From the NCBI RefSeq assembly GCF_003334335.1, contig NZ_QOWQ01000206.1: 357 bases of DNA. The stretch is one strand, 5' to 3'. Positions within the stretch are counted from its first letter, which is position 1. Every line of letters begins with the position of its first letter. This document shows, piece after piece, positions 1 through 357 of this stretch. The notes beneath the pieces were generated by a model. It was not told the DNA's origin and made no database searches. It worked only from the letters and a program-made list of their open reading frames with translations. The DNA is from Escherichia coli. Its GTDB lineage: Bacteria; Pseudomonadota; Gammaproteobacteria; Enterobacterales; Enterobacteriaceae. A program made the position numbers and the translations under genes.

Positions 1-246
1 ACGCATAAACCGGTGCAGTACTATCCCGGGAAACATCCGTGCGAAAAACCGGCAGAAATGCTGCAGCAGATAATCAGCGCTAGCAGTCGTCCGGGTGACC
101 TGATTGCAGATTTTTTCATGGGGTCGGGTTCGACAGTGAAAGCGGCACTGGCGCTCGGGCGTCGTGCAACTGGCGTTGAGCTGGAGACTGAACGTTTTGA
201 GCAGACGGTCAGGGAAGTACAGGATTTAGTCAGCCAGAACGGATGA
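1..246 (+). CDS. DNA methyltransferase, beta-class N6-adenine/N4-cytosine family, C-terminal portion (5' end lies upstream of the window)
   Basis: The reading frame is open from base 1 (acg cat aaa ccg = THKP) and runs to TGA at 244-246. The GTG at 13-15 reported as the ORF start is therefore probably an internal Val codon. The translation contains two motifs that from established knowledge characterise the C-terminal half of beta-class amino-MTases: H-P-C-E-K-P (nt 34-51), matching the HP[TC]xKP motif, and D-F-F-M-G-S-G-S-T (nt 109-135), a motif I FxGxG-type AdoMet-binding loop, followed by a hydrophobic helix and a GxE segment. The catalytic DPPY-type motif IV expected N-terminal to these is outside the window. 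Target base (m6A versus m4C) and recognition sequence cannot be determined from this fragment. Confidence 0.88.
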   Translation, partial: THKPVQYYPGKHPCEKPAEMLQQIISASSRPGDLIADFFMGSGSTVKAALALGRRATGVELETERFEQTVREVQDLVSQNG

Positions 247-249
247 TAT

Positions 250-286
250 TGAAGAATTAATTACGCGTCGTTATTATGCGGCTCCC
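250..286 (+). promoter_or_regulatory. Candidate sigma70 promoter for the tRNA gene
   Basis: TTGAAG at 250-255 matches the -35 consensus TTGACA at 4 of 6 positions. A 16-bp AT-rich spacer follows, then TATTAT at 272-277 matches the -10 consensus TATAAT at 5 of 6. The GC-rich stretch GCGGCTCCC at 278-286 sits between the -10 and the first tRNA base, as in the discriminator of stringently controlled stable-RNA promoters. This is a sequence match only; the tRNA could equally be processed from a longer read-through transcript. Confidence 0.3.
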
Positions 287-357
287 GGCCCTTTAGCTCA
301 GTGGTGAGAGCGAGCGACTCATAATCGCCAGGTCGCTGGTTCAAATCCAGCAAGGGC
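287..357 (+). tRNA. tRNA with CAU anticodon, most likely lysidine-type tRNA-Ile2 (reads AUA); tRNA-Met not fully excluded; 3' end truncated by the window
   Basis: Cloverleaf folded by hand. Acceptor 5' strand is 287-293 (GGCCCTT) pairing with 352-357 plus one base beyond the window (AAGGGC-N). U8 and A9 are at 294-295. D-stem is 296-299 (GCTC) with 308-311 (GAGC), enclosing D-loop AGTGGTGA. Anticodon stem is 313-317 with 325-329, enclosing loop CTCATAA (318-324) with anticodon CAT at 320-322, U33 and A37. Variable loop is 330-334. T-stem is 335-339 (GCTGG) with 347-351 (CCAGC), enclosing the canonical T-loop TTCAAAT. C4-G69, C5-G68 and C29-G41 are present, which from memory are the TilS identity elements of E. 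coli tRNA-Ile2. The sequence looks close to, but not identical with, E. coli ileX/ileY as I recall them. The last acceptor base, discriminator and any CCA fall beyond base 357. Confidence 0.88.

Follow-up and report, generated by a model that had tools for sequence, protein, structure and literature searches.

The subject of this analysis is a 357-nt stretch of Escherichia coli DNA (contig NZ_QOWQ01000206.1), called the window throughout, in which the end of a DNA methylase gene is followed by an isoleucine tRNA gene of the ileZ type. We conclude with high confidence that the window represents the methylase end/ileZ junction in the late region of a lambdoid E. coli prophage, and nothing that was found contradicts this identification. 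Both elements are located on the plus strand. Reading frame 1 stays open from the first base up to a TGA stop codon at 244–246, and exactly 40 nt separate the end of this codon (246) from the start of the tRNA gene at 287. The first-pass annotation, made from the sequence alone, had described the same arrangement.

Prophage context of the junction

Four complete E. coli chromosomes (JE86-ST05, JE86-ST02, UCPROB-001, and UCPROB-002) matched the window at 100% identity and many more at 98.9%, and at least 80% of the window was present in 1806 of the 5426 complete E. coli genomes. In JE86-ST05, for which all locus coordinates given below are those of the fetched stretch L001, the window lies inside a lambdoid prophage of ~50 kb, with the integrase beside yccA at one end and serT/hyaA at the other. 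The 5′ part of the prophage runs from the integrase to RusA, Q, an open reading frame (ORF) of 65 amino acids (aa), the methylase, tRNA-Ile, tRNA-Arg(UCG), and tRNA-Arg(UCU). The 3′ part comprises genes for a TerB-family protein, a DUF3927/TciB-like protein, and a SASA (nanS-p) esterase, followed by two small ORFs, holin, lysozyme, lysis protein, terminase, and morphogenesis genes. The Q antiterminator gene (17940–18623), located upstream on the same strand, was recognized by its annotation and by a match to phrog_304 (E = 2e-102). The window is situated 1.4 kb downstream of Q, and the holin and lysozyme genes are found 4.1 kb beyond the tRNA-Arg pair. In UCPROB-002, the gene order was the same throughout the span covered by the fetched 6-kb flanks, which runs from hokD past RusA and Q to lysozyme. 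This order, with Q upstream and the tRNA-Arg pair and holin and lysozyme downstream, bears out the first-pass proposal of a lambdoid prophage late region. The proposal had also named a phage trio of rare-codon tRNAs, Ile-CAU, Arg-UCU, and Arg-CCU; the first two are present, whereas the anticodon of the second arginine tRNA is UCG and not CCU.

A search of the phage collection gave 36 records that matched at least 80% of the window length. The identity to the window was 98.6% for PhiR49_2, 95% for the Stx2a and Stx2d phage series, 93.8% for 1720a-02, 87.5% for the Stx2e phage phiP27, and 83.9% for the Stx2c phages. The comparison with prophage and Stx-phage genomes suggested by the first-pass annotation returned full-length matches to Stx2a, Stx2c, Stx2d, and Stx2e phages together with non-Stx lambdoid phages, at 84–99% identity. 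The annotation had also stated that a methyltransferase gene often stands just upstream of the phage tRNAs; the same junction is found in the Stx2a and Stx2d phage records that are 95% identical to the window. The cassette of the 65-aa ORF, methylase, and tRNAs occupies the same offsets behind different Q alleles in Stx2a EH2201, O55:H7 USDA5905, 1720a-02, and phiP27.

Consensus matches around the end of Q in JE86-ST05 comprised a promoter-like site that overlaps the end of the gene (18613–18641) and two terminators located 5′ of the methylase (18696–18710 and 19024–19041). The geometry of these candidate sites after Q matches that of pR′, qut, and the terminators annotated in 933W; a qut site was not identified. 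The conserved 65-aa ORF (18840–19037; phrog_331) always separates the pR′/tR′-like region from the methylase, and a terminator-like hairpin of its own comes after it. Further downstream in the same locus, the holin (24503), lysozyme (25678), lysis protein (26708), and terminase (27722) genes precede the head and tail genes. The Q, lysis, terminase, head, and tail genes of this prophage are intact, hokD and dicB are present, and frameshifted or truncated DUF4752, ea22-like, DUF551, and YdfR genes were found at 12909–15450 and 24723–25064.

The first-pass annotation placed the window just upstream of either stx or the lysis cassette. The holin and lysozyme genes do follow downstream; the toxin genes were not found in the exact-match copies inspected, in which TerB-family and DUF3927 genes take that place. 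Origin of the window from a Stx-converting prophage, with stx2AB beginning ~270 nt past the window end, is nevertheless the alternative that retains the most credit, though we consider it improbable. It would agree with the composition of the full-length phage-record matches, which were mostly to Stx2a, Stx2c, and Stx2d phages plus the Stx2e phage phiP27, and with Stx2a EH2201 (95% identical), in which stx2A begins 272 nt past the window end. However, the top Stx-phage match reached 95.2%, whereas all four 100% matches and those at 98.9% are chromosomes. No stx was present in the slot of the three copies inspected, JE86-ST05 and UCPROB-002 (both 100%) and O55:H7 USDA5905. An stxAB pair between the tRNA cluster and nanS-p was absent from these two 100% copies and present in EH2201 (95%) and phiP27 (87.5%). 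Moreover, the phage collection is biased towards Stx phages, while 1806 of the 5426 complete genomes of E. coli bear the full junction, and the majority of strains of this species are non-toxigenic. Since the nearest Stx phage is 95% identical, we put the chance that the source carries stx as low.

In the inspected genomes with 100% identity, the slot that holds stx in the toxin phages (JE86-ST05 locus 20709–21301; 0.35–0.95 kb 3′ of the window) is occupied by the TerB-family and DUF3927 genes. The TerB-family protein belongs to phrog_632, labeled “tellurite resistance,” and the 54-aa DUF3927/TciB-like protein to phrog_1470.

The end of the methylase gene

The first 246 bases of the window comprise the last 81 codons and the TGA stop of a 352-aa gene. 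The frame begins THKPVQYYPGKHPCEKPAEMLQQIISASSRPGDLIADFFMGSGST and ends SQNG*, and its translation is THKPVQYYPGKHPCEKPAEMLQQIISASSRPGDLIADFFMGSGSTVKAALALGRRATGVELETERFEQTVREVQDLVSQNG. On the basis of motifs and homology, this part is identified as the end of a beta-class N6-adenine DNA methyltransferase of the M.EcoGI/M.EcoGII family. Two motifs of such enzymes are encoded in the window. The codons for GKHPCEKP (28–51, plus strand) correspond to the conserved “HP..KP” block of beta-class methyltransferases, as judged by alignment to “HPTQKP” of the solved methyltransferase 9c3u; the block is invariant in the Stx2c, Stx2a, and 1720a-02 homologs and in M.EcoGII. The codons for DFFMGSGS (109–132, plus strand) could be read directly as motif I, the FxGxG motif with which amino-methyltransferases bind S-adenosylmethionine; FMGSG stands at residues 310–314 of the full protein and is encoded by bases 112–126.

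In genomes identical to the window, the full methylase gene encodes 352 aa (JE86-ST05 locus 19188–20246). The protein matched the Pfam family PF01555 (N6_N4_Mtase) over residues 29–340 (E = 1e-42), as well as PHROG DNA-methyltransferase families. DPPY was found at residues 35–38, which gives the order DPPY, target-recognition domain, FxGxG; the same order has been described for M.EcoGII (PMC5778455). Matches to solved beta-class enzymes (RsrI, CcrM, MboIIA, and DpnA) covered both ends of the protein. The solved-structure search returned no structure of M.EcoGII, only distant beta-class methyltransferases.

The methylase shared 330 of 349 residues (~95%) with M.EcoGII, a sequence machine-read from the PDF supplement of PMC11551740, and a few of the mismatches are reading errors. 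Its identity to the enzyme of phage 1720a-02, which Murray et al. (2018) name as a close relative of M.EcoGII (PMC5778455), was 96% (337/352). M.EcoGI and M.EcoGII are prophage-borne, are 95% identical to each other, and methylate adenine in any context; their genes are silent in the lysogen, and constitutive expression is toxic (Murray et al., PMC5778455). A homolog from ST131, 99% identical to M.EcoGI, was predicted to be inactive from reverse transcription PCR (PMC4659465). Most of the coding differences between the window and its diverged relatives fall at third codon positions (29 of 44 against Stx2c and 26 of 37 against phiP27); thus, the methylase end has been kept as coding sequence. 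Other ORFs of 21–32 aa, on the minus strand or out of frame, are nested in that of the methylase or run antisense to the tRNA gene, and were rejected for want of support.

Shortened copies of the gene were observed in two phages. The 933W record keeps only the last ~110 nt of the methylase (about 3960–4080), directly 3′ of a terminator, and corresponds in this comparison to window positions 137–246. PhiR49_2 keeps 279 nt (7968–8246), annotated as a 92-aa “DNA adenine methylase.” It seems that the methylase has been deleted more than once, each time with its 3′ end, the putative tRNA promoter pT, and ileZ spared.

The ileZ gene and its putative promoter

The tRNA gene occupies 287–357 on the plus strand, with the anticodon CAT at 320–322, and was supported by ARAGORN, by Rfam, and by the RefSeq annotation of the identical sequence. 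The full gene has 76 nt, and the window stops 5 nt short of the encoded CCA terminus. ARAGORN placed the tRNA at 287–359 with the anticodon CAT (position 34) and labeled it Met, and the match to Rfam RF00005, truncated at its 3′ end, scored 63.5 bits against a gathering score of 29. The minimum-energy structure calculated by RNAfold for the tRNA alone was not a cloverleaf and is uninformative, the covariance model being the better test. Minus-strand Rfam matches to Plastid-ycf2 (25.5 bits against a gathering score of 65.7) and to SNORD103 were dismissed as chance matches to the antisense of the tRNA.

Comparison with the host genes showed 70 of 76 positions identical to chromosomal ileY (92%, six differences) and 68 of 76 identical to ileX (89%, eight differences). 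The difference from ileX agrees with what the first-pass annotation had suspected. The acceptor stem GGCCCUU/AAGGGCC contains the pairs C4:G69 and C5:G68, as in ileX and ileY, and base pairs 4:69 and 5:68 are identity elements of E. coli TilS (PMC11947777). Because these are the pairs read by TilS, the gene is assigned from its sequence to tRNA-Ile2 (ileZ) and not to tRNA-Met. An elongator tRNA-Met would be suggested by the CAT anticodon, and it is on this anticodon alone that ARAGORN and many GenBank phage records give the label “Met,” as does at least one paper (PMC7946995). This identity is nonetheless very unlikely. The pairs of tRNA-Met at the same positions are U4:A69 and A5:U68, and only 51 of 77 columns were the same in all four sequences once elongator tRNA-Met was aligned with the window tRNA, ileX, and ileY. 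The tRNA-Met sequence was verified against E. coli genomes before the alignment, after which the tRNA-Met reading was rejected. In addition, RefSeq labels the identical sequence tRNA-Ile, and the 933W and phiP27 records name the gene ileZ.

The “tRNA-Met” label on this tRNA is a recurring annotation error, for example in PV340570 and LC567829, whereas RefSeq and the older 933W, phiP27, and Sakai-type records use tRNA-Ile or ileZ. The phiP27 record (5283–5536) carries ileZ and argO only, without argN, and a change of C13 to A in its ileZ breaks a D-stem pair.

Assignment of the ileZ gene to a host housekeeping locus, ileX or ileY with a resident methyltransferase, was rejected as wholly improbable: related tRNA-Ile(CAU) genes with 86–92% identity do occur in every E. 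coli genome, but the neighbors of ileX are mug and nfeF and that of ileY is the ygaQ pseudogene, a methyltransferase is absent from both fetched loci, their upstream sequences fail to align with the window, and all full-length matches inspected sit among phage genes. Likewise, in none of the matches inspected was the junction flanked on either side by core genes of the chromosome, the layout that the first-pass annotation had named as evidence against a prophage.

At the top of the anticodon stem, the window tRNA has an A27·C43 mismatch (positions 313 and 329), in contrast to the G27·U43 wobble of ileX and ileY, and all phage copies in the alignment showed the same mismatch. Even where the adjacent methylase end is just 74–82% identical, copies have a tRNA that agrees at 76/76 positions. 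About half of the complete E. coli genomes hold this tRNA at 99% identity or more, and up to 14 related copies were counted in one genome. Large E. coli plasmids (75–105 kb) bear tRNA-Ile(CAU)-like genes at 84.5% identity, and 20 places with whole-window matches were located on plasmids; the plasmids with such genes or matches may be phage-plasmids.

Within the 40-nt gap, the consensus scan revealed a putative sigma-70-like promoter at 249–277 on the plus strand (9/12 matches), with −35 TTGAAG at 249–254, a 17-nt spacer, and −10 TATTAT at 272–277. This candidate pT (JE86-ST05 locus 20249–20277) is separated from the tRNA by a G+C-rich stretch, and it lines up exactly with the 933W feature “pT; putative tRNA promoter,” located 10 nt 5′ of ileZ. 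In diverged copies, the hexamers were better kept (5–6 of 6 positions for −10 and 4–5 of 6 for −35) than the spacer (11–13 of 17) and the discriminator (3–6 of 9). A terminator was identified 3′ of the third tRNA (20553–20570), and the same feature is annotated in 933W. With a candidate promoter before them and a terminator after them, the three tRNA genes therefore look like a small operon nested in the late transcription unit. The repeat search of the window found none.

Proposed working of the late region

The methylase gene follows Q and a promoter-terminator pair placed like pR′/tR′, and for this reason late-only expression is proposed. The gene would be silent in the lysogen and would be expressed only after induction, when Q-modified RNA polymerase would read through the terminators. 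Such a mode of expression agrees with the findings of Murray et al. that genes of this kind stay silent in lysogens and are toxic when expressed constitutively. The enzyme would then methylate adenines of progeny DNA before packaging, with little or no sequence preference, and this broad methylation could allow the progeny DNA to resist many restriction systems in the next host.

The tRNA trio (Ile2-CAU, Arg-UCG, and Arg-UCU) would be driven by its own pT and ended by its own terminator. TilS is expected to turn C34 of the Ile2 tRNA into lysidine, whereupon the tRNA would read AUA. In this way, the three tRNAs may serve the decoding of codons that host genes seldom use but phage genes use often, and that are especially frequent in stx2A, where this gene is present. 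The codon usage of 45 prophage genes was compared with that of 40 core genes of the same genome, drawn from a single host region of 50 kb. The prophage/host ratios were 2.4 for ATA, 7.5 for AGA, 8.0 for AGG, 2.0 for CGA, and 4.3 for CGG (p < 0.001 for all). The stx2A gene of the Stx2a relative has 15 ATA in 319 codons. The part identities, the gene order, the prophage setting, and this codon bias are direct findings of the analysis; the timing of methylase expression, the methylase specificity, the activity of pT, the formation of lysidine, and any gain in translation are inferences.

The possibility was also considered that pT and the terminator delimit an operon that works independently, even without induction of the lysogen, and raises the decoding of AUA, AGA, AGG, and CGG in the host. 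Although plausible, this proposal is tentative, and we are inclined to doubt it. Since about half of the complete E. coli genomes carry this exact tRNA, with up to 14 related copies in a genome, prophages would then measurably raise the rare-codon capacity of the host. Expression of other horizontally acquired genes rich in rare codons could rise, and the A27·C43 mismatch could tune the competition of the phage tRNA for TilS. Even so, the result would be moderately interesting only.

Several points weigh against the overall interpretation of the window or against parts of it. The JE86 prophage contains several pseudogenes, and may be partly decayed and not inducible. The promoters and terminators were called from consensus matches only; a match as good as that of pT can well arise by chance, and the 4-kb scan gave 6 promoter-like sites against 3.1 expected by chance. 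The A27·C43 mismatch, where ileX and ileY have G27·U43, may bear on recognition by TilS or IleRS. The identity of 95% to M.EcoGII is approximate, owing to the reading errors in the comparison sequence, and non-specific activity, demonstrated for M.EcoGI and M.EcoGII, is predicted for the window allele by homology. The codon comparison, as stated, draws on one host region.

Comparison with known systems

The methylase–ileZ arrangement is already known from the 933W annotation, from Steyert et al. (2012), and from Murray et al. (2018). The junction is a published and widespread block of lambdoid and Stx prophages and carries little weight as a discovery. Its value is that of an annotation marker. 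It indicates that a contig is prophage late-region DNA and that two arginine tRNAs follow, it marks the “moron” slot in the next 0.1–2 kb, where stx or other cargo may sit, and it flags the common mislabeling of this tRNA as “tRNA-Met” in phage records. A literature search for ileZ-argN-argO and for 933W tRNA, rare codons, and stx2 returned nothing relevant.

Compared with chromosomal ileX and ileY, the window tRNA has the same anticodon and the same acceptor-stem identity pairs, at 89–92% identity. The host genes differ from it by 6–8 substitutions, including G27·U43 for A27·C43, have unrelated flanks, and are not clustered with arginine tRNAs.

The ileZ-argN-argO cluster and pT of 933W (NC_000924) provide a close parallel. 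The annotation of the 933W genome reportedly goes back to Plunkett et al. in 1999. The tRNA is identical at 76 of 76 positions, the −10 hexamer is the same, five of the six −35 positions agree, and the distance to the tRNA is equal. In both, ileZ is followed by the same two arginine tRNAs and a terminator, with Q and pR′ (a candidate site in the window-type prophage) ahead of the cluster and the moron slot and the lysis genes behind it. The two differ in that 933W has lost the methyltransferase except for the last ~110 nt, which directly follow another terminator, and has stx2AB after the tRNAs, whereas the exact-match genomes have the TerB-family and DUF3927 genes.

The methylase compares best with M.EcoGII and M.EcoGI from prophages of E. 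coli O104:H4 C227-11 (PMC5778455), with which it shares ~95% aa identity over 349 residues, the order DPPY/target-recognition domain/FxGxG, and the prophage location. Unlike M.EcoGII, the window allele has 352 aa, a slightly different C-terminus (...DLVSQNG), and ~19 differing positions, and its specificity is predicted from homology.

The order rusA, Q, DNA methylase, tRNA genes, stxAB, yjhS, and lysis genes was depicted by Steyert et al. (2012) in their figure 5 (PMC3491183). The stx2 phages, namely those of Steyert et al., phiP27, and the Stx2a, Stx2c, and Stx2d phages, share with the window-type prophage the order and spacing of the 65-aa ORF, methylase, and tRNAs; however, the toxin gene is absent from the inspected copies that are 100% identical to the window. 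The Q alleles also differ, with a Q protein of 227 aa in the window-type prophage, one of 126 aa in EH2201, and a DUF1133 protein in O55:H7.

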